A stretch of 64,000 bases of DNA from Verrucomicrobiota bacterium (GTDB lineage Bacteria > Verrucomicrobiota > Verrucomicrobiia > Limisphaerales > AAA164-E04): the NCBI GenBank assembly GCA_047947115.1, contig CP170459.1, positions 4,928,001 through 4,992,000 on the forward strand, in the 5' to 3' direction. The notes under the pieces were generated by a model that was given only the letters and a program-made list of their open reading frames with translations, did not search any database and was not told the DNA's origin. Shown piece by piece: positions 39,513-51,477 of this stretch (the first letter of the stretch is position 1; each line of letters opens with the position of its first letter). The translations under genes and the position numbers were made by a program.

Positions 39513-40583
39513 GTGAACTCTTCGTGCAATCAGGTTGAAACAGGATCTGGGTACAGGGCATTATGTCGCTGGATATCTCAACGTTCCCCTGAATCATCCT
39601 ATATATCCACCCCAGACGATGCCGCACCGGCGTCTCCACACCCTTACCCACCATTTCCTGGATCCATTGGCGTGTATTCTTCCGGATCCACCGGAAAACC
39701 AAAGTTGATCTGGAAGGATATAAACCGCTTGGAGAATGATTGCAGCCGACACACCAGCCATAAAGCATGCACGTGGGCCACTTGTTTTGCTCCGTCAAGC
39801 TTCGCCGGGGTGCAGGTGGCCGCCCAGGCGATGGTTTCCGGTGGAAACATTCTGCCTTTGGGGAAGAAGTGGACAAACAACCGTCAGTTGCTCTTTCAGT
39901 CCCAACCGGAAATACTGGCGGCAACACCGACATTTTTGCATTTGCTTCAGCAAGCATTGAACCATTCCCTGTCCGAACGATGGCAACCACGGCAAATCAC
40001 TCTGGGTGGGGAACCCATTCGCCCAACGACGGAACATATCCTCCAAAATCAATTTCCAACAAGCCGGGTCACCCTCATTTATGCTTCGGCGGAAATGGGA
40101 ATCATCGCAAAATCCCACCGTAAGGACGGATGGTATCCTATCCGATTTTTGAGACAAAGATTTGATGGATGGCGTCAGGAGAATGGTGAACTACAATTGC
40201 TCAGGAACAATGACTGGATAAAGACTGGCGATCATTGTGAAGTCAATGATGACCATTTCCGCATTGTGGGAAGGATGGATCGGGTGATCCATGTTGGAGG
40301 ATTCAAAGTGTGCCTGGACGACATTGAAACCATGGCGGAATCATTCTCCGAAGTCAGTCGAGCCCTTGCCTTCGCAAAAGAGAATCCGGTGACAGGTCAT
40401 GTCGTCGCTCTGGTCCTGGAATCTTCCAAACCGTTTCGGAATCAGGTCATGTTGGATAATATTTTGGAAAACTTGCGCAAACGCCTTCCCAAACCAGCAT
40501 GGCCACGCTGGACTGCCTGGGGAAAAGTCCGGGCATTGAAAAACGGAAAACGCATACTCCTCCCCGATTCTAACATCACATGA
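39513..40583 (+). CDS. Short AMP-binding (ANL family) acyl-activating enzyme
   Basis: YSSGSTGKPK P-loop, LGGE, YASAE, WIKTGD, GRMD..I.VGG.KV, terminal NGK. Confidence 0.8.
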   Translation: MNSSCNQVETGSGYRALCRWISQRSPESSYISTPDDAAPASPHPYPPFPGSIGVYSSGSTGKPKLIWKDINRLENDCSRHTSHKACTWATCFAPSSFAGVQVAAQAMVSGGNILPLGKKWTNNRQLLFQSQPEILAATPTFLHLLQQALNHSLSERWQPRQITLGGEPIRPTTEHILQNQFPTSRVTLIYASAEMGIIAKSHRKDGWYPIRFLRQRFDGWRQENGELQLLRNNDWIKTGDHCEVNDDHFRIVGRMDRVIHVGGFKVCLDDIETMAESFSEVSRALAFAKENPVTGHVVALVLESSKPFRNQVMLDNILENLRKRLPKPAWPRWTAWGKVRALKNGKRILLPDSNIT

Positions 40584-41320
40584 AATCATTGGACGGAAAA
40601 CGCATCCTTGTGACAGGAGGTTCCCGAGGTCTTGGACTCGACATCTGTGAGACGCTGCTGAAATCAAAAGCTTCGGTCATCACCACGGCAAGACAATCCA
40701 CAGCTGATGTGGAAGATCTGAATCAACGTTTTGAGAATCACTTTGAATTCTTTTCATGTGACTTTTCCGACAACAAACAACTTGGATCTTTTGTGGAAAA
40801 AGCCCGGTTGATGAACAAACCGGTCCATGGTCTGGTTGCCAACGCGGCTGTTGGGACGGAGGGGCTGCTCACCTTGCTGTCCCACGACCAAATCCATCGT
40901 TCGCTGCAGATAAACCTCCATGCAACCATACTGATCACACAGGCAGTGCTCAAAAGCATGCTGGCCCATCAACAATCGGGGAGTCTGGTGTTCATTTCAT
41001 CAGCATGCGCCCACCGGGGATTCAAGGGATTGAGTGTCTATGCGGCAGCCAAAGCGGGGCTGTGCGGATTTTCCAAGGCAGTTGCCCGGGAATACGGTCC
41101 CCGGGGCGTTCGCAGCAATGCAGTGCTGCCCGGGTTTTTACAAACCGAGATGACGCGGAACTTAAGTGGTTCCCAAACCGAATCCATCCGTAAAAGGACA
41201 TCTCTCAAACGTCTCGGCAAGCCCTGCGACGTTACCCAAACCGTGCTGCACCTTTTGTCGGATGAATCACATTACATCACCGGCTCCGAAATTGTGGTGG
41301 ATGGAGGTTTGACAAACTAA
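40580..41320 (+). CDS. FabG-like SDR oxidoreductase
   Basis: VTGGSRGLG, VANA, YAAAK, PGF.QTEM, VDGG. Confidence 0.92.
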   Translation: MKSLDGKRILVTGGSRGLGLDICETLLKSKASVITTARQSTADVEDLNQRFENHFEFFSCDFSDNKQLGSFVEKARLMNKPVHGLVANAAVGTEGLLTLLSHDQIHRSLQINLHATILITQAVLKSMLAHQQSGSLVFISSACAHRGFKGLSVYAAAKAGLCGFSKAVAREYGPRGVRSNAVLPGFLQTEMTRNLSGSQTESIRKRTSLKRLGKPCDVTQTVLHLLSDESHYITGSEIVVDGGLTN

Positions 41321-41333
41321 ATCAGGAAAGAAC

Positions 41334-41903
41334 ATGCAGAGGCTCCCAAAAACTTTCGGCCCGGGCAAACTCATCGATGCAGACATTCTGAACGACCTGT
41401 TCAAACTGGCTGGTCAACAAGTGCGCATCTTTGAAAACGCCCGCATCGACCAACCAAATAAGATTAGTATCGGAGATTTCTCACAGATCGACGAAGGCGT
41501 TCACTTGTTCGCCGGAGAAGGCATTCAAATCGGTCGCCATGTTCACTTCGCGTTTGGATCCTCGGTATCAGGGGGAGGATGGTGTGCAATCGGTGATTAT
41601 GTCAGCATTGGAGCAGCTGTCCGCATTGTCACCGGAACTGAAAATATTGAGTCCGGATTAACCAATCCAACGGTACCATCAGCATCACGCTCTCCGCTTC
41701 GCGCCTCGATCAACATTGGAGATCATGCAGTCGTATTTACCGGCGCCATCCTGTTTCCGGGAGTCCACATCGGAGAAGGCGCTGTTGTCTCTGCCGGATC
41801 TTTGGTGCACCATGATTTGAAACCCTGGACGATATACGGCGGTCATCCACTGGTCCCGATCAAGAAGAGGGAAATGAATAAAGTAGCAGGCCTCGCGACG
41901 TGA
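41334..41903 (+). CDS. Hexapeptide-repeat (LbH) acyltransferase
   Basis: Repeated IGD/IG.. hexapeptides, PGVHIGEGAVVSAGSLV, GG.P..PIKKR. Confidence 0.88.
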   Translation: MQRLPKTFGPGKLIDADILNDLFKLAGQQVRIFENARIDQPNKISIGDFSQIDEGVHLFAGEGIQIGRHVHFAFGSSVSGGGWCAIGDYVSIGAAVRIVTGTENIESGLTNPTVPSASRSPLRASINIGDHAVVFTGAILFPGVHIGEGAVVSAGSLVHHDLKPWTIYGGHPLVPIKKREMNKVAGLAT

Positions 41904-43668: not shown

Positions 43669-45543
43669 ATGAAATCTTCGGAATTACGGTATTCAAACCA
43701 TCGAACCAACCTGTTTTTCATGTGCCTGGCTACCATGATGGCTTGCCTCATCGGTTACCAATCTCTTCACGGACAGGGAGCCGACTTCAAAGCTGCAGTT
43801 GGCAACCCACAGATTGGTTCGGTCAACTCATCCGGTTCGCTGCAACTCCCCTACATCACCTGGGGCGGCGATGTGGCCACCTTTCACGCCAACGGAGGAC
43901 TTCAAACCGCCACTGGTTCCATTTTCGACAAGCAGGGATTGAAGTTCAATATGAAGGCTGGTGACGATTTCGCACAGCAGGTCAAGGATTACATGACGGG
44001 CAAATCCCCCTTCCTGCGAGGCACGTTCCGCATGATGGGGATGGCTTCCGAGATCATTGGCTCGGATCCAAGGACCAAAGGGGTTGTCATACTGCAAATG
44101 ACCTGGTCTGCCGGAGATCACATGGTAGCGCGGGAAGGATTGAAAACAATATCAGACCTGAAGGGCAAAAGCATCGCTATCCAGCAAGGCGGACCTCACG
44201 TGGGCATGCTGGACGACATCCTAAAAACCGCCCAGCTCTCCTGGGCGGATGTCAACATTGTCTGGGCCAAGGATTTGACCGGCACTCCGGATTCACCCGC
44301 GGAAATGATGCGTAAAAACCCGCAGATCAGCGCTTGCTTCGCCATCACACCGGACATGTTGGGTTTGTGTGGCGGACTGGAAAGCACCGGATCAGGCGCA
44401 GAAGGCACGATCAAAGGGGCTCATGTACTGGTCTCGACCGCGGAACTCTCCCGGTCCATCGCAGATGTTTATGTGTGCCGTAAAGATTTCTACGACGCTC
44501 ATCGTGACAAGGTCACAAAGTTTGTGACAGGTTACTTGAGAGGATGTGAAGAACTTGTGGACATGAAACGCCAATACGAAGCCGGCGGATCAGCCAATTA
44601 CGAAAAAGTGCTGAAAATGACCCAGCAGATTTACGGCACTGATGTTGTTCCTGTTCCAGAGGAAGCACACGGACTGATATCGGATTGCACCTTTGTTTTG
44701 TATCCGGGCAACGTGACCTTCTTCACGCAAAACAATAATCTGACCAGTTTCAATAAGTTCCAGCAGTCGGCACTGGACCTGGCCGTCAGTCAGGGATATG
44801 CCAAAGAAAAAATGGGGCTCTTTCCATCTGGTTTAAATTATCAATCCGATGACTTCCTGAAGTATCTCTCCAAAACCACCATGGAACAGGGCGGACGATT
44901 CAGAGCCGAGGCCGTTCGGGAGGAAATCGAGCTATTGAGCCAGGGGGGCGAGTTGGACGACAAGACCATCATGAGCTTCACCATCCAGTTCGAACCCAAT
45001 CAGACTGAATTCAGCGCGGTTCAATATGGAGCCGAATTTCAGAGAGTGGTGGAATCTTCCCAACGCTTCGGCAACGCTGTCATTGCCATTCGCGGGCACG
45101 CGGATCCCACCAAGACATTGCTGGATCTGGTGAAAGCAGGCATGCAGAAAGGTGTACTCAAACGCTCCGGAGCCAGCGGCAATTATAACTACTCGCTGCA
45201 AGGCCGCCCTCTGGATCTGGAAGCAACCAAAGATCTGGTCCAATTGATCGAGTCAGGATCCTTTGACGGGGCACAGACATTCAATCCCCGCGAAACCATG
45301 CAAGCCGCCCTCAATCTCTCCAGACTAAGGGCAGAGCAGGTACTCGACGCGATCAGCCAATACGCGAGTTCCAAGGGCGTCACCATCGACACCAGCCAGA
45401 TTCAGCCGGTGGGAGTGGGCATTCGTGAACCATTCATTGCCAAACCAAGTAATTTGAACGAGGCCAAGCAAAACATGCGGGTTGAATTCCGCATCGTACG
45501 TGTTCCGGCTGAGGCAACCACTTCATCCGATTTTGATTTCTGA
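43669..45543 (+). CDS. Secreted NMT1/SsuA-like substrate-binding domain fused to an OmpA-like C-terminal domain
   Basis: ITWGG, WSAGDHMVAR..LKTISDLKGKSIA, IADVYV (PBP type 2). C-terminal IQFEPNQ...RGHAD...NLSRLRAEQV...GVG...NMRVEF. Confidence 0.8.
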   Translation: MKSSELRYSNHRTNLFFMCLATMMACLIGYQSLHGQGADFKAAVGNPQIGSVNSSGSLQLPYITWGGDVATFHANGGLQTATGSIFDKQGLKFNMKAGDDFAQQVKDYMTGKSPFLRGTFRMMGMASEIIGSDPRTKGVVILQMTWSAGDHMVAREGLKTISDLKGKSIAIQQGGPHVGMLDDILKTAQLSWADVNIVWAKDLTGTPDSPAEMMRKNPQISACFAITPDMLGLCGGLESTGSGAEGTIKGAHVLVSTAELSRSIADVYVCRKDFYDAHRDKVTKFVTGYLRGCEELVDMKRQYEAGGSANYEKVLKMTQQIYGTDVVPVPEEAHGLISDCTFVLYPGNVTFFTQNNNLTSFNKFQQSALDLAVSQGYAKEKMGLFPSGLNYQSDDFLKYLSKTTMEQGGRFRAEAVREEIELLSQGGELDDKTIMSFTIQFEPNQTEFSAVQYGAEFQRVVESSQRFGNAVIAIRGHADPTKTLLDLVKAGMQKGVLKRSGASGNYNYSLQGRPLDLEATKDLVQLIESGSFDGAQTFNPRETMQAALNLSRLRAEQVLDAISQYASSKGVTIDTSQIQPVGVGIREPFIAKPSNLNEAKQNMRVEFRIVRVPAEATTSSDFDF

Positions 45544-45661
45544 TCCGACCAATACGCACCATACAAGGGAAACCCCAATACACAACCCTCGACGACACGA
45601 CCAGGCAGGTGACACTCGGGTTGCCCCCTTCGTATCCATCCATTGAAGATATAGACAACCG

Positions 45662-46591
45662 ATGAAACGAATATTCATGAGACCGCTGTTGGCAGGCACG
45701 GCCCTGACCTTTCTCCTGGGCGCTTTTTCCAGCCTGATGGGACAATCCTCCATCGATCATGTGGTCATTGTCCTGGATGCTTCCGGATCCATGAAACAAA
45801 AGATGCCGAGTTCGAATCAGCCCAAAATGGAGGCCGCGAAGGAGGCTTTGATCGAAGTTCTGAGCAACATACCTCAAACTACGCACATCGGGCTGCTGGT
45901 ATTCAGCGCGGCAGATGTCAAGGATCACTGGGTGTATCCCCTCGCCTTCCGCAAGGATGACGAACTTCTCCCCGCCATTCGAAACATTCGCCCCAACCGC
46001 GGAACACCATTGGGCCGATACATTAAAATCGGCGCTGATCGGTTACTCGAAGAACGCGCCAAACAATTTGGCTACGGCACCTATCGACTGTTGATCGTCA
46101 CGGATGGAGAAGCAAACGATCGCAACCTGGTCGAACAATATACCCCCGAGGTGCTGTCCCGTGGTTTGAGAATGGATGTGATCGGTGTAGCCATGGATAG
46201 AGATCACACACTTGCCACCAAAGTGCACACCTATCGCCGCGCCAACGACGCCAACACTCTCAAACAAGCCATCGCGGAAGTCTTCGCGGAAGTCGGAGGC
46301 AATCAGGCCGGGAATGTGGCTGACAACGACGCTTTCGAACTGTTGGCCCCCATTCCTGTCGAAGTAGCTTCTGCCGCAATCAATGCCCTTTCCCAATCTG
46401 GAAACAACCCCATTGGCGAAAGCCGAACCAACAGCCCAGATGTCGAGCAAGCCGCTTCAAACACCACGGCACAGCATACCATCACACACACGCGAACAGT
46501 TCAACCCGAGGGGATGGGAAGTGTTTTGAAACTGGTCATTTTGGGAGGTCTTGTGCTACTGGTCCTCCTGAAAGCAATCACGAAAAGATAA
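45662..46591 (+). CDS. Exported vWA domain protein with C-terminal membrane anchor
   Basis: Signal peptide. MIDAS DASGSM, GTPL, IVTDGE. C-terminal hydrophobic helix + KR. Confidence 0.9.
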   Translation: MKRIFMRPLLAGTALTFLLGAFSSLMGQSSIDHVVIVLDASGSMKQKMPSSNQPKMEAAKEALIEVLSNIPQTTHIGLLVFSAADVKDHWVYPLAFRKDDELLPAIRNIRPNRGTPLGRYIKIGADRLLEERAKQFGYGTYRLLIVTDGEANDRNLVEQYTPEVLSRGLRMDVIGVAMDRDHTLATKVHTYRRANDANTLKQAIAEVFAEVGGNQAGNVADNDAFELLAPIPVEVASAAINALSQSGNNPIGESRTNSPDVEQAASNTTAQHTITHTRTVQPEGMGSVLKLVILGGLVLLVLLKAITKR

Positions 46592-48162
46592 TGAGCGAAC
46601 GTAAGGCGAAGGGATGTTTGGTTGCCACGATGGCGTGGTGTATCATTTTTCTATTGTTGGCAGTGGCGTACAAATACCTGGTGCACCCATATTTCAGCCA
46701 ACGCCTGACAGAGGAAACAGGAACCGTCAGCCGTTACGATCACGAAATCACCATTGCGACCGATTCCTTCAGCGGCTATGCCATTCTTCGTTCTAATGCC
46801 ATGAAACAATGGATGTCGGAACATCAGATCAAACTGAATGTGATCGACGACGGAGCCAATTACTCGGAACGACTCGACAATCTCCGGCGCGGCACAACCC
46901 AGTTGGCTGTGTTCACCATCGATTCCTACTTGAAAGCAGGAGCCAAAGCCGGGGCATTTCCCGGTTCGATCGTTCTGGTGATGGACGAAACACAGGGTGG
47001 AGACGCACTGGTGGCACATGAGTCATCCTTCAAATCCATCCAGGAACTCAATGCGCCATCCACTCGGATCGTTTTGACACCTGATTCTCCAAGTGAATTT
47101 CTTGCACGCGTCATCCTTGCCCACTTCAGCCTGCCGAAAATATCGCCGGACTGGATGACAGGTGAAGACGGCTCGGACAAAGTCCTGAACCATCTCAGGC
47201 AATCAAGTCCCGGAAGCCAAAAAGCATTCGTTCTTTGGCAACCCTATGTGGCCCAAGCTATCAAACTACCGGGTTACAAGGTGTTGCTGGACAGTTCCCA
47301 ACTCAAGGGCTACATCGTGGATGTACTGGTGGCCGAGCGAACGTTTTTGAAAAACAATCAGGAACTCATTCAAACTTTTGCCGAAGGTTACTTCCGCGCT
47401 CTGTATCAGTATCAAAACAAGGAAAACGGACTTCAAAATCTGGTCATCACGGACGCCAACCGGCTCAACCCAGAGAAATTGGACGCGGATCTGGCAGATG
47501 CCGTGGTGAAAGGGATTCATTGGAAAAACACCATGGACAACTATGCCCACTTTGGAATTGCCCGGGAAACTCGCCCGAATTCCCCCCCCCACCTAGAAGA
47601 CATGATCGGAAACATCGTCGAAGTGTTGCTAAAAACGAAGAGCATTGGCACCGATCCATTAAACGGACAGTATAACACGCTCTTTTACGACCAAATCATG
47701 GCCTCCCTGCAGACAAACAACTTTCACCCTGGCCAGGAGCTCCATTTGATATCGGACCTGAGCTCCGAACAACGACCAAGCGCGCCCCCAGACCAACCCC
47801 AACCCTTGACCGAAACGGAGTGGAGTCGATTGATACCCGTCGGGGTGCTTCAAGCCGATGCCATTGGGTTCGTCAGAGGGTCTTCCAGTGTGAGTCGTTC
47901 CAGCGAACGGGCCCTTCAGGCCCTTTCCAAAAAGCTGCAGTCCTTTCCAAATTTCTATCTAAAAGTGATCGGGCAAACCCGGGCTGAAGGCGATGCGGCA
48001 GCCAACCAGCGATTAGCTGCGGCCCGGGCCGAGGCGGTGGCGCAGATGTTGAAACAACATGGAGTGCCCGATTGGCGGATCCGAACCGAAGCATCTCCTT
48101 CCACCAGCGAAAACGGTCAATTTCAATCGGTTGTTTTTGAATTGGGACAGCGTCCTTATTGA
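46591..48162 (+). CDS. Membrane-anchored substrate-binding domain fused to a degenerate OmpA-like domain
   Basis: N-terminal TM. DSFSGY, DETQGGDALVA..SIQEL, SPSEFL, VLWQPYV, IVDVLV. C-terminal IGFVRGS..NQRLAAARAEAV. TAATG overlap with the vWA gene. Confidence 0.8.
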   Translation: MSERKAKGCLVATMAWCIIFLLLAVAYKYLVHPYFSQRLTEETGTVSRYDHEITIATDSFSGYAILRSNAMKQWMSEHQIKLNVIDDGANYSERLDNLRRGTTQLAVFTIDSYLKAGAKAGAFPGSIVLVMDETQGGDALVAHESSFKSIQELNAPSTRIVLTPDSPSEFLARVILAHFSLPKISPDWMTGEDGSDKVLNHLRQSSPGSQKAFVLWQPYVAQAIKLPGYKVLLDSSQLKGYIVDVLVAERTFLKNNQELIQTFAEGYFRALYQYQNKENGLQNLVITDANRLNPEKLDADLADAVVKGIHWKNTMDNYAHFGIARETRPNSPPHLEDMIGNIVEVLLKTKSIGTDPLNGQYNTLFYDQIMASLQTNNFHPGQELHLISDLSSEQRPSAPPDQPQPLTETEWSRLIPVGVLQADAIGFVRGSSSVSRSSERALQALSKKLQSFPNFYLKVIGQTRAEGDAAANQRLAAARAEAVAQMLKQHGVPDWRIRTEASPSTSENGQFQSVVFELGQRPY

Positions 48163-48269
48163 ACATGTATTCATCCTGCGCCCATTTTAGGACCGACCAA
48201 GTTCACCTGCTGAATGCCCTGATCCAAGCCTTTGCAGGGGTAACCGTTTGTGATACATTTGGAATCTCG

Positions 48270-49067
48270 ATGATTCAGGAACCATCCCAGGCATCGCCAA
48301 GCTCGGCGAAAGAAGTCGGCAAGGTAGACATCCGCAAACGGGTGTTGCTTCGCCTGACATCCAGTCCCTTGGTTCTCGGTCCGGTCATGCTCGGGTTTAC
48401 CAGCATGGTTTCCGCATGGGCTTTTGCCCCGCGTCAGGCGGGATTGCTCCTGTTTGGAGGCATCGCGGGATTGCTCATTGGGACAGGCTGCTTTGTTTCC
48501 AAATTATTACTTTCAGGCAACAAGGTGGCTCACAAGGTGCTGTCTGAAATCGAAGAACAACAATTCAATGCCCGACAAAAGGCACTGGACGATCTAAGGA
48601 AAGCTCTGGAACGTTCAGACAACGATCCCCGTCCGGAAGAAGCCCTGGGGGATCTGAGAGCATTGGTGGACACTTTCCGTTCCATTGAGACGTCTGAGGC
48701 ATCGGCACAATGGGCCATCATGGTGGATGTCCGACTCCAGGTGGAATCTCTCTTTGCCCACTGCCTACGCCTGATCGAACAAACCCATCACCTCCGGCTC
48801 ACAGCAGACAAACTCAACACGGAAGCCGCTCGCCACCCCGTTTTGGAGCAACGTGAAGGCATCATTCATGAAATACAGGCTTGCGTGAAACAATTGAGTC
48901 ATTCGCTTGTTTCACTTCAGAAGTTGAGGCATGTCCAATCAGGCACCCATGATCTTCAGCAGATGCGTAAAGAACTCGATGCCAGCCTGGAAGTCGCTCG
49001 CAAAGTGGAAGAAAGAATGCAGGAATGGTCTCTGGGATCCCATGTTCGATCAGTTGATAACATTTGA
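48270..49067 (+). CDS. 2-TM membrane protein with helical cytoplasmic domain (XpaC-like architecture)
   Basis: Two adjacent hydrophobic helices followed by a ~190-aa heptad-rich helical region. Start is 48159 or 48270. Confidence 0.65.
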   Translation: MIQEPSQASPSSAKEVGKVDIRKRVLLRLTSSPLVLGPVMLGFTSMVSAWAFAPRQAGLLLFGGIAGLLIGTGCFVSKLLLSGNKVAHKVLSEIEEQQFNARQKALDDLRKALERSDNDPRPEEALGDLRALVDTFRSIETSEASAQWAIMVDVRLQVESLFAHCLRLIEQTHHLRLTADKLNTEAARHPVLEQREGIIHEIQACVKQLSHSLVSLQKLRHVQSGTHDLQQMRKELDASLEVARKVEERMQEWSLGSHVRSVDNI

Positions 49068-49098
49068 TTTGTAAAGCACAGCAACTAAAACAAATATC

Positions 49099-49929
49099 AT
49101 GTTCAAAGCAATCACAAGATGGTTTAAAGCGGTGGGATATCTCCTAACCGGGCAAATTGATTCGGCACGTAAAGTGATCGACACCAATCCACATGTCATC
49201 AAAGCCAAATACGATGAAATTGTCCGGGACAAGATATCCCGCATTCATCAATACAAGCAGGCGGTCGCCGGCCTGATCGCTCAGGAGGAGAAAAAAATCG
49301 CAAAGGTCAAGACCCTCTCCGAGGACGTGGCCAATCTGGAACGACTCAAAGCCGGAGCCCTGGCCAAGGCAAAACAAACCGTTGAGTCATTAAAAAACTC
49401 CGGAAAAACACAAGAGCAGATCCATGCGGACGAGGATTACAAACGCTGTCTGGCTGCTTTCAACGACTTTTCCTCGACGTTGGCTGAAAAACAGGATCGC
49501 ATCACGGAATTGGAACAGGACATTGCCGATTACCGCAAGAACATCAGTGACCACAAGGTTCAGTTGCAGCAGTTGCTGAGAGATGTCGAAAAAGTCAAAT
49601 CCGAAGCCGCCGACACAGTGGCGGATGTCATCACCTCCAAACAGGAAAAAGAATTGGCCGAAACATTGGCGGGCATCGCTCAGGATGGAACAGCTGAAGA
49701 ATTGCAGAACCTGCGCGACATGCGCCAGGAGTTGAAAGCCGAAGCCAAAGTCACCCGTGAACTGGCAGGTACCGACACAAAGGCACAGGAAGCCGAATTT
49801 CTGGAATACGCCCGACAAAGTCAATCCACCTCCGAATTCGATGCCCTCATCGGCCTGGCGTCCGAAACGGAAGAAAAATCAAAACCCTCCGGCGAGACCG
49901 GGAAAAAGGACACTTCGCTGCCGGAATGA
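49099..49929 (+). CDS. PspA/IM30 (ESCRT-III superfamily)-like coiled-coil protein
   Basis: N-terminal amphipathic helix MFKAITRWFKAVGYLL, then NP near residue 30 (equivalent to the PspA EDP). Long helical hairpin, C-terminal short helices, no TM. Confidence 0.7.
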   Translation: MFKAITRWFKAVGYLLTGQIDSARKVIDTNPHVIKAKYDEIVRDKISRIHQYKQAVAGLIAQEEKKIAKVKTLSEDVANLERLKAGALAKAKQTVESLKNSGKTQEQIHADEDYKRCLAAFNDFSSTLAEKQDRITELEQDIADYRKNISDHKVQLQQLLRDVEKVKSEAADTVADVITSKQEKELAETLAGIAQDGTAEELQNLRDMRQELKAEAKVTRELAGTDTKAQEAEFLEYARQSQSTSEFDALIGLASETEEKSKPSGETGKKDTSLPE

Positions 49930-49976
49930 CGTCCGAGGCAGCGTCACACCATTTATTTTGATCTGTAAAACCAATC

Positions 49977-51149
49977 ATGAAAGAAAACAAATTCCTATAC
50001 ACACAGTCACTCGCAGCCCTATGCCTTGCCATGGGACTGACCGCCTGCGGTCCACAAAGTGCCACCACCGACTCAGAAACATCCAATGGGAACGCATCCG
50101 GTGGAGTCAGCAACATGGAAGCAACCAACCCCTCACCGGCTGAGGAAAAAAAGGATTCGGGATTACCCACCTTCTCGCTGGCTTGGAGCGAATACCCCTC
50201 ATGGAGCACATTCGGTGTGGCGCATGTCGACAAATTCATCAACGGAAAAAAAGGCGAGCTGGGTTCGCTGGAAGAAAAATGGCAGGTCGATATTGTCCTG
50301 CACGAGGCAGAATATGACGCCTGCATTACCATGTATGGCGCCGGCACCGTCGATGCAGCCTGTCTCACCAACATGGACGCATTGAACCCGGCCATCGCAC
50401 GTCCTTCCACCATGATTCTCCCTACCTCCACAAGCCATGGAGCGGACGCCTGCATCGTGGTGGATTCCATCAATTCCATTCAGGATCTCAAAGGCAAAAA
50501 AGTCTACGGTCTCGAAAAAACGGTTTCTGAATATTGTTTTGTTCGAAACCTGGAAATGGCCGGGGAAAAAGAAAAGGACTATCAGTTCAGCAACATGGAC
50601 CCCGCCGCAGCCGCCGCAGCCATGCAACAAAAGCAGGACGGTGTGGATGGCATCATGGTCTGGAATCCATTCGTCATGGAAACCCTCTCAAAACGTGACG
50701 ACGTGAAAATACTCTTTGATTCCACCAAAACCCCAGGCGAAATCATCGATTCGGTAATCATGGCCCAGGATTCCCTGGCCAAAGAAGGCGGCGAAGCCTT
50801 TGCCTGTGCGATCATCGACGCCTTTTACACTATCGCAAACCGCATGAACCAACCCGAAACCCGCAACGACACATTGATCGCCCTTGGTGAGAAATTTTCC
50901 AACCTCGGACTGGAAGCCATGAACACTGTCGTGCGTCAAACCAAATTCATCAGCACGCCAGGGGAAGCCATCACCTTGTTCAACTCACAGGAACTCCCGC
51001 AAATCATGAAGCGGGTCATCGACTTCTGTGTCGACCACGAAATCACCGGACGCTCCCCTGCCCTCAGCTATGGGACCCCCAAAGACGGGGACAAGGCCGA
51101 ACTTCGTTTCGACCCCAGTTACATCCAAAAAGTCACTATGAAACAGTAG
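49977..51149 (+). CDS. Lipoprotein substrate-binding protein (NMT1/SsuA-like PBP2 fold)
   Basis: Lipobox LTAC. LAWSEYPSW, TNMDAL, S.GADA..V..I.SIQDLKGKKV, VWNPF, PGEIID. Confidence 0.85.
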   Translation: MKENKFLYTQSLAALCLAMGLTACGPQSATTDSETSNGNASGGVSNMEATNPSPAEEKKDSGLPTFSLAWSEYPSWSTFGVAHVDKFINGKKGELGSLEEKWQVDIVLHEAEYDACITMYGAGTVDAACLTNMDALNPAIARPSTMILPTSTSHGADACIVVDSINSIQDLKGKKVYGLEKTVSEYCFVRNLEMAGEKEKDYQFSNMDPAAAAAAMQQKQDGVDGIMVWNPFVMETLSKRDDVKILFDSTKTPGEIIDSVIMAQDSLAKEGGEAFACAIIDAFYTIANRMNQPETRNDTLIALGEKFSNLGLEAMNTVVRQTKFISTPGEAITLFNSQELPQIMKRVIDFCVDHEITGRSPALSYGTPKDGDKAELRFDPSYIQKVTMKQ

Positions 51150-51477
51150 CCTTGAATGAGGCGACTTCATTTCAGTTCCAACGAGAACGAATGCAACGGG
51201 CACACGTCAACCAGTGTGCCCGTTTATTTTTATCCCATTCATGATTCCCGTTAAAAACAATCAACTTCGAGTCAGGGATACAGGAACAATAGCTACCATT
51301 TCATACAAACCATGCTTAATATGGACGCTGGTTCCGGTTCATCGGCATGGCCGTAACAATCAAAAGTCCCGTCAACTTCGTAGCATCAATCCCTGCCCCC
51401 CATTTGGTGAGCATCCGAAAAGCATAGATTAAGCTGGCGATTTTTTAATTTTCCCTATTGAATCTCTTCATTATTCG

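Follow-up and report, generated by a model that had tools for sequence, protein, structure and literature searches.

We analysed a window of 64,000 nucleotides from a Verrucomicrobiota bacterium (contig CP170459.1, positions 4,928,001 to 4,992,000), in which six neighbouring genes encode three binding proteins, a vWA protein, a two-transmembrane (2-TM) protein and a PspA-like protein. Our findings show that these genes belong to a conserved nine-gene cassette, whose remaining members encode a permease, an ATP-binding cassette (ABC) ATPase and a tandem AAA+ ATPase, and that the cassette is split in this genome; this genomic conclusion is near certain. With moderate confidence, we read the cassette as a machine for membrane upkeep: a PspA-like protein would coat the membrane, a dedicated AAA+ motor would recycle it, and a predicted solute importer would work alongside.

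The open reading frame (ORF) listing of the window contains six ORFs at 43669-51149, all on the + strand; lengths are given in amino acids (aa), and a terminator-like hairpin 3' of the unit is included:

Gene 1, 43669..45543, + strand: 624 aa; exported SsuA/NMT1-type binding protein with a C-terminal OmpA-like domain (~65-aa insertion)
Gene 2, 45662..46591, + strand: 309 aa; exported vWA protein with an intact metal-ion-dependent adhesion site (MIDAS) motif and a C-terminal membrane anchor
Gene 3, 46591..48162, + strand: 523 aa; N-terminally membrane-anchored binding protein with an OmpA-like domain
Gene 4, 48270..49067 (longest ORF from 48159, 302 aa), + strand: 265 aa; 2-TM protein, predicted helical bundle
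Gene 5, 49099..49929, + strand: 276 aa; predicted divergent PspA/Vipp1 protein (ESCRT-III-type)
Gene 6, 49977..51149, + strand: 390 aa; lipoprotein solute-binding protein, SsuA/TauA type
Terminator-like hairpin, 51195..51224, + strand: 11-pair stem and T run; consensus match only

The distances between successive genes, from gene 1 to gene 6, are 118, −1, −4, 31 and 47 bp. Comparison with ortholog N-termini indicates that the ATG at 48270 is the likely true start of gene 4, and with this start the gap between genes 3 and 4 is 107 bp. The original prediction, made from the sequence alone, had described such a compact, co-oriented unit and had noted that nothing transporter-like lies in or beside it. 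Both descriptions hold: a domain search of the window proteins placed no permease or ATPase gene inside or adjoining the cluster, which is flanked by a sulfatase and a DUF1549/1553 protein.

The missing genes are present elsewhere in the genome. On a viral contig, one locus continues beyond orthologs of all six genes with three more, for a permease, an ABC ATPase and an AAA+ protein. Searching the genome with these three gave one best match each, and the matches lie side by side at C1:4204752-4208326, ~763 kb before the six-gene cluster on the same chromosome. The permease is TauC-like (E 9e-21; PF00528, E 2e-17). The ABC ATPase matches ABC ATPase models, and its Walker, signature and His motifs are intact by sequence. 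In the tandem AAA+ protein, the first domain is degenerate (Walker A G-N-x-x-D) and the second is intact; the Walker A lysine, the Walker B Asp-Glu, an aromatic pore loop and the arginine fingers are kept in 63-64 of 64 aligned rows. Its closest solved relatives are VAT, p97 and Cdc48. The match to the CdvC model is weak (E 1.6e-9), and no match to an MIT domain was found.

A census of related loci comprised the best 80 of 185 matches, leaning to close kin. All nine genes stand in the same order (the six, permease, ABC ATPase, tandem AAA+) in 35 of the 80 loci, which by their record labels come from Verrucomicrobiota, Acidobacteria, Desulfobacterales and several candidate groups; the near relatives carry the label Verrucomicrobiota. 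The six-gene order is thus non-random, recurring in several phyla, and the genes co-occur elsewhere. Gene 6 was found in 60 loci: 51 have the permease in the same locus, six end within 800 bases, and three (L011, L018 and L035) lack it although their sequence runs on for at least 7.5 kb past gene 6. Among the 54 informative loci, that is, those with gene 6 and usable downstream DNA, the permease is therefore present in 51. The remaining 20 loci are without gene 6; 17 show a PspA-AAA+ form that also lacks gene 4 and the importer, one is without gene 6 only, and two end just after gene 5. In most relatives the AAA+ gene is linked to the PspA gene in cis.

These counts bear on the central idea of the original prediction, that the six genes act without a transporter and as something other than a nutrient importer. 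The proposed comparison of gene neighbourhoods showed that relatives mostly carry permease and ABC ATPase genes directly after the six, and both genes are retained here at a distance. Because homologous clusters include a permease and an ABC ATPase, the claim of a transporter-less system fails, and with it the grounds for setting an importer aside.

The permease, ATPase and AAA+ protein of this genome are 77-86% identical to the in-cassette copies of the near relatives L012 and L014-L016, and in these relatives a 1.7-3.0 kb insertion with a sulfatase-like ORF occupies the junction between gene 6 and the permease. In a tree of 222 gene-5 sequences (FastTree, midpoint root; L001, L006, L007, L010, L091 and representatives outside 255-300 aa excluded), the window copy is sister to that of the split locus L011 and lies among relatives with all genes in cis (support 0.95); deep supports are weak, and the tree does not give a direction of transfer. 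All three other split genomes (L011, L018, L035) hold the permease and the AAA+ gene elsewhere. In genomes that appeared to have orphan parts, the partner was likewise found elsewhere for the permease (5/5), the AAA+ (5/5) and the ABC ATPase (5/5), these sets of five overlapping. We conclude that in this lineage a break separated gene 6 from the permease and that the apparent transporter-less operon is a by-product of a rearrangement.

Some features of the distant half were recorded in passing. After the AAA+ gene lies a gene for a membrane-anchored TAXI-family binding protein (L091:12333-13856), as also in L012 and L016, followed by a dispersed repeat of ~125 bp at L091:13940-14065. The repeat resembles repetitive extragenic palindromic (REP) or miniature inverted-repeat transposable (MITE) elements; it has 68 BLAST matches in the genome at E 1e-5, and its best other copies are 87-97% identical. 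Just upstream of the permease, a gene resembling a membrane-bound dehydrogenase of the Planctomycetes-Verrucomicrobia-Chlamydiae (PVC) type (L091:5499-8634) is apparently broken into three ORFs. RNA contigs from two runs carry single-base insertions at L091 5859 and 7537, which suggests errors in the reference assembly. In the split relative L018, the gene right after gene 6 (L018:10507-13548) has 69% nucleotide identity to C1:4214023-4215358, 6 kb beyond the AAA+ gene of the present genome; this may be a trace of the rearrangement or a paralog.

Parts of the stretch are contained in 20 RNA runs from 17 studies; four runs were examined, and contigs of RNA libraries cover both halves of the cassette. 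This evidence consists of contigs, with the flanks also covered in two runs, so that expression level, strand and operon limits are unreadable from it and carried-over DNA is possible.

Whole genomes gave a similar picture of the cassette's composition. For this we used 19 genomes that carry the PspA-like gene: 15 came from the 301 searched in the phylum of genome G310, and four from a search of the window's phylum, where clear gene-5 matches occurred in 5 of 301 genomes. These genomes are related and often incomplete, and the counts are descriptive. The AAA+ gene was found in all 19. Gene 1 was found in 11 of them, and the permease in 10 of these 11 and in none of the rest; the AAA+ and PspA-like proteins are thus tightly paired. 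Gene 1 was not found in four of the five short-form genomes. In genome G080 (96% complete), the AAA+ gene comes right after genes 1-5 (L132:5023-12858); no permease was found there at E 1e-30, the best gene-6 match was 29% identical, and the ABC ATPase was not searched for. The reverse arrangement occurs in G313, in which seven genes stand together (L133:4288-12659) and the PspA and AAA+ genes lie side by side on another contig. From these census counts, the PspA-AAA+ pair appears as the core, with genes 1-4 on the one hand and gene 6, permease and ABC ATPase on the other as sub-modules that usually travel together.

The assignment of gene 5 relies on profiles of its family. By itself, gene 5 matched no PspA model in Pfam (the PF04012 cut-off was not reached) and nothing among PDB sequences. 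A profile of its family (135 rows) had Vipp1 (6zvr) as its top PDB match (E 2.3e-8), over Vipp1 residues 30-87 and 98-213, which take in the two arms of the hairpin and, in the same order, the helices that follow. Coiled coils of spike proteins appear in the same list down to E 7e-8, so that the margin for Vipp1 is thin. In addition, 17 of the 135 family members match PF04012 at E 1e-3 or better (best 3.4e-7), and in the Atlas gene 5 scores 0.91-0.98 to PspA/IM30 clusters. The structure model (mean predicted local distance difference test score, pLDDT, 80) has helices at residues 31-100, 112-194 and 202-250, with ~35 extra residues at the hairpin tip relative to Vipp1, and the top five rows of a Foldseek search with this model are all Vipp1 (E 1e-3 to 7e-3). 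The original reading of 49099-49929 as PspA- or ESCRT-III-like thus gained support, and gene 5 is best described as belonging to a divergent PspA/Vipp1 clade lying outside PF04012 by its cut-off. It is the sole copy found in the genome, in which each hidden Markov model (HMM) of a cassette member gives one strong match; a second, classical pspA was not found (95.8% completeness).

Both ends of the gene 5 product have features that may bear on its function. Residues 1-18 have a hydrophobic moment of 0.57 and a net charge of +3, the third-highest 18-mer of the protein, and are predicted to form an amphipathic, basic, membrane-binding helix. At the other end, the protein terminates in Leu-Pro-Glu (LPE) in 80 of 80 loci, after a linker modelled with low confidence.

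Gene 4 encodes two hydrophobic helices and was modelled as an all-helical bundle (pLDDT 81). Of the named Atlas clusters, Rv2743c/PspM is the nearest (score 0.88, 186 shared features), which we treat as a lead only. PspM sequences were sought in 151 genomes around G315 and none exceeded the cut-off. For Snf7, none of 64 gene-4 members matched at E 0.01, and an ESCRT-III fold does not stand out in structure searches with the gene-4 model. Aligning the gene-4 profile with that of the gene-5 family produced no alignment (probability 1.3%), nor did the XpaC profile (0.5%). Gene 4 was considered as Snf7, PspM or XpaC, with no significant sequence or fold match for any of them. A complex prediction for the products of genes 5 and 4 (64-row alignment each) scored 0.00 and was not used for or against binding. 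By its position and by analogy with PspM, gene 4 is predicted to be a membrane anchor or recruiter of the PspA-like protein.

Genes for vWA proteins, solute-binding proteins and XpaC/TelA co-occur in Ter-type stress neighbourhoods, and the original prediction had drawn a link to these. Just upstream of the PspA-AAA+ pair, we found XpaC (PF10112, above cut-off) in four short loci (L050:2177-2836, L071:2212-2910, L082:8048-8761 and L088:4619-5329); in L082, a 369-aa exported-looking protein separates XpaC from the PspA gene. In these four loci, an XpaC-family 2-TM protein takes the place of gene 4. The link is thus retained as a positional one, and it does not extend to alignment with gene 4 or to the present genome, where PF10112 had no match over its cut-off.

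The remaining genes of the window cluster encode envelope proteins, and domain models confirmed the predicted SsuA/NMT1-type binding domains in genes 1, 3 and 6, the vWA domain in gene 2 and the OmpA domain in gene 3. In gene 1, which has a hydrophobic N-terminal stretch at residues 15-33, the binding domain matches PF09084 (E 5.6e-8). Its OmpA domain, interrupted by ~65 residues, was missed by Pfam and matches NF053611 weakly (E 1e-4); the prediction of this domain is nevertheless upheld by the motifs G-H-x-D and L-S-x-x-R, which occur in 49 of 49 aligned rows (with L replaced by I in one). D479 and R554 are invariant in these rows, and we take them to have the peptidoglycan-binding role of OmpA-C domains. 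Gene 2 matches PF00092 (E 1.3e-12) and has hydrophobic stretches at 4-22 and 283-309; of its MIDAS residues, D39, S41 and S43 are present in 52 of 54 rows (the other two have gaps) and T115 and D148 in all 54. In gene 3, the OmpA domain matches PF00691 (E 4.3e-12) and the binding domain TIGR03427 (E 2e-11). The usual Asp of the OmpA motif is replaced by Arg (R464 in 53 of 56 rows), and R479 is found in 56 of 56. Lacking the Asp, this OmpA domain is expected to have weak affinity for peptidoglycan.

Gene 6 has a lipobox, as read from its sequence, and a binding domain of the NMT1/SsuA type (Pfam, E 2e-6). Its solved relatives are SsuA and TauA (E 3e-6 to 1e-4), and its score against TIGR03427 is 163 bits, under the cut-off of 334. 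Since the permease shares the locus in nearly all informative relatives, gene 6 probably supplies the binding subunit for the importer whose other genes lie 763 kb away.

The G+C content of the cluster is the same as that of the window, about 0.51-0.53. A promoter scan gave nothing exceeding shuffled sequences, and the terminator scan counted 16 sites against 10.6±3.9 in shuffles, so that the hairpin listed above is not significant alone. At 39513-41903 of the window lies a small cluster that, as read from the sequence, resembles an AMP-binding ligase, a FabG-like reductase and a hexapeptide acyltransferase.

The cassette is also carried by large phages. Record LR756511.1 (595 kb) has genes 1-8 in order (L119:10072-18634), with no match for the AAA+. 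Two IMG/VR records, of 436 kb (L008:4517-16797) and of 299 kb (classed as a provirus; L125:3-11842), have all nine genes; in the former, the AAA+ ORF is short (456 aa). All three records encode a Gp23 capsid protein. Five shorter viral contigs (L009, L010, L121, L124 and L126) hold parts or all of the set; in L121, genes 4-5-6 and the AAA+ are present and the permease and ATPase are missing. Gp23 was not found in four of eight viral records tested (G302, G303, G470 and G471; L126 was not among the eight), which makes the viral nature of these four less sure. Searches of three viral records for terminase PF03237 found none, and gene 1 as a single query gave no match in the viral contigs. The viral gene-5 copies fall at several positions of the tree, where deep supports are weak. 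Carriage by phages of 299-595 kb suggests that viruses gain from the cassette. The 436-kb record further contains, inside the cassette, a gene that reads as polynucleotide kinase/phosphatase-like (L008:14164-15135) and, after it, a second, unrelated AAA gene (L008:16958-18499). Yuan and Chen, in the accessible text of their preprint, count 189 pspA genes among huge phages and place 15 beside complete ABC transporters (bioRxiv 10.64898/2026.10.24.761521); its main text is without the terms 'AAA' and 'OmpA-like', and its supplements may list the loci described here.

Membrane upkeep by the cassette could proceed as follows. Using its amphipathic N-terminal helix, the PspA-like protein would attach to the inner membrane from the cytoplasmic side and polymerise as Vipp1 and PspA do. 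It would be recruited by the 2-TM protein of gene 4, like PspA by PspM in mycobacteria, and the AAA+ protein would grip the Leu-Pro-Glu tail at the end of the flexible linker and extract subunits, like Vps4 acting on eukaryotic ESCRT-III. An SsuABC/TauABC-type importer of a small solute would be formed by lipoprotein 6 together with the permease and the ABC ATPase. The two binding-protein/OmpA fusions and the anchored vWA protein would provide a periplasmic scaffold, tethered to the wall, to capture ligand and mark the site of action of the polymer.

A wider proposal, which we put forward tentatively as possible rather than probable, is that the cassette represents a bacterial counterpart of ESCRT-III and Vps4 built from different parts. 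It would comprise a PspA clade with its own Cdc48-like ATPase recognising the LPE tail, interchangeable 2-TM recruiters (gene 4, XpaC and perhaps proteins distantly related to PspM) and a scaffold that is tethered to the wall, binds ligand and sets the place of remodelling, and it would have been acquired whole more than once by huge phages for control of the host envelope.

Several results weigh against the reading as a PspA-based upkeep machine. The fold assignment of gene 5 rests on sequence profiles: no Foldseek row for its model reaches E 0.001, and in a wide structure search with VIA-align coiled coils of SMC and dynein proteins stand above Vipp1 (rank 16, Z 11.3, root-mean-square deviation 3.4, 156 aligned). 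Among 130 distant gene-5 relatives, 40 end in LPE, and a similar motif occurs within the final 25 residues in 79. Gene 4 showed no family match at any cut-off and no fold match over background, and the PspM model PF25587 had no HMM match to it at E 10. The census counts are not independent, because the 80 loci lean to close kin, and the parts of the cassette separate in several ways, as G313 and G080 show. Finally, no experimental study of such an operon or of any member was found in the literature outside subscription papers.

Alternatively, nutrient uptake could come first: the cassette would mainly serve high-affinity import by means of three binding proteins, and the PspA-AAA+ pair would merely assemble, cluster or protect the transporter. 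This fits the three SsuA/TauA-type binding domains, the TauC-like permease and the intact ABC ATPase, the presence of the permease in 10 of the 11 genomes with gene 1, and the huge phages that keep genes 1-8 intact, one of them (LR756511.1) without the AAA+; a link to solute transport was also proposed by Ravi et al. in the accessible parts of their paper (PMC11237479). The PspA-AAA+ pair, however, is often free of an importer (17 of 80 loci; permease absent in nine of 19 genomes), which argues that it has a job of its own, and G080 retains genes 1-5 without gene 6 or permease. We regard uptake as the primary function as unlikely, though a serious candidate. The original prediction proposed instead that genes 1-4 are a wall-tethered sensor signalling to the PspA polymer, with transport unneeded; the importer would then be a passenger. 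G080, with its AAA+ gene directly after gene 5, speaks for it, together with the viral locus L121 and the repeated breaks at the junction of gene 6 with the permease (seen here and in L011, L018 and L035). Yet G080 is the sole bacterial case among the 11 genomes with gene 1, and the search there did not include the ABC ATPase. In G313, genes 1-4 stand with the importer and PspA lies elsewhere, each of the three truly split relatives retains the permease, and a signalling domain or regulator is absent from the nine genes. Taken together, these observations make a pure sensor distinctly improbable.

An anti-phage role, which had also been suggested, or superinfection exclusion at the envelope found no support. 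Carriage by huge phages and the patchy occurrence (15 of 301 genomes in the phylum of G310 and 5 of 301 with clear matches in the window's phylum) would suit such a system. PADLOC matches, however, are weak (E 2.5e-4 or worse) and of coiled-coil or MotB type only, the window flanks are a sulfatase and PVC-type proteins and not a defence island, no gene-5 copy was found on plasmids, and the G+C content does not differ from that of the window; a defence role has very little chance of being correct. Hardly credible is a decaying cassette that no longer forms one working unit in this genome: its halves lie 763 kb apart, but the nine ORFs are full length with conserved motifs, split relatives also keep both halves, and contigs from RNA libraries, in which carried-over DNA is possible, cover both.

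The upkeep reading draws on several known systems. With Vipp1/IM30 and PspA, gene 5 shares the profile match over the hairpin arms and later helices, the predicted amphipathic N-terminal helix and the helical model; it differs by ~35 extra residues at the hairpin tip, the C-terminal LPE and the linked AAA+ ATPase. ESCRT-III with Vps4 or CdvC is a works-like analogy, in that a polymer former with a conserved C-terminal tail is combined with a pore-loop AAA+; whereas Vps4 and CdvC have an MIT domain and a single AAA domain, the AAA+ here has two AAA domains and no MIT match and is nearest to VAT/p97/Cdc48. The accessible text of a 2026 review names Hsp70-type chaperones as Vipp1 disassembly factors and, for bacterial ESCRT-III, general chaperones only (PMC13051332); an AAA+ link is a prediction of Ravi et al. 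(PMC11237479). The cassette offers a concrete PspA/AAA+ pair, with the tail motif as a candidate handle, and its two-gene minimal form exists naturally, for example in L062 and L065. The mycobacterial ClgR-PspA-PspM system likewise has a 2-TM partner encoded beside pspA, and its PspM is the nearest named Atlas cluster of gene 4, but the PspM model gave no sequence match to gene 4 and there is no ClgR here. According to the accessible part of a preprint, PspM keeps a PspA species at the membrane (bioRxiv 10.64898/2026.09.09.750162), and Ravi et al., in the text available, found no PspM outside Actinobacteria (PMC11237479). The SsuABC, TauABC and urea-carboxylase-linked (TIGR03427) importers share the class of binding protein, a single permease and a single ATPase; scores for the specific families are all under their cut-offs, and the importer here is embedded in a PspA cassette.

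The closest known system is an operon type predicted by Ravi et al. in 2024 (mSystems, PMC11237479). As described in the accessible parts of that paper, it combines PspA, a tandem AAA+ with an inactive and an active domain, a TM-anchored 'Snf7', an ABC ATPase, a permease and a PBPB-OmpA protein (example OGG56892.1; a shorter PspA-PBPB-TM+Snf7 context is AKJ06548.1), and ATP-dependent membrane remodelling linked to solute transport was proposed for it as a prediction. The label 'undescribed' in the original prediction is therefore not tenable, since the type had been predicted in a shorter form. No description of the nine-gene form with a vWA gene was found in the literature outside subscription papers, and 'vWA' is absent from the main text and one supplement of Ravi et al. 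Of the envelope module as first conceived, the conserved unit around an ESCRT-III-type PspA protein, with two binding-protein/OmpA fusions and a vWA protein, stands; its freedom from a transporter and its novelty do not. Shared with the type of Ravi et al. are the PspA gene, the binding-protein/OmpA fusion (genes 1 and 3), the ABC permease and ATPase, a membrane-anchored helical protein and the tandem AAA+ with an inactive first domain; in architecture gene 4 agrees with their 'Snf7', but this label was not reproduced in our Snf7 searches. In contrast to that type, the cassette described here adds the vWA gene, a second binding-protein/OmpA fusion and the lipoprotein binding protein, its gene order differs, and in this genome it is split, with permease, ATPase and AAA+ in trans. 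New here are the phage records with eight to nine genes, the replacement of the 2-TM gene by XpaC in four short loci, and G080, in which the periplasmic genes occur without an importer.

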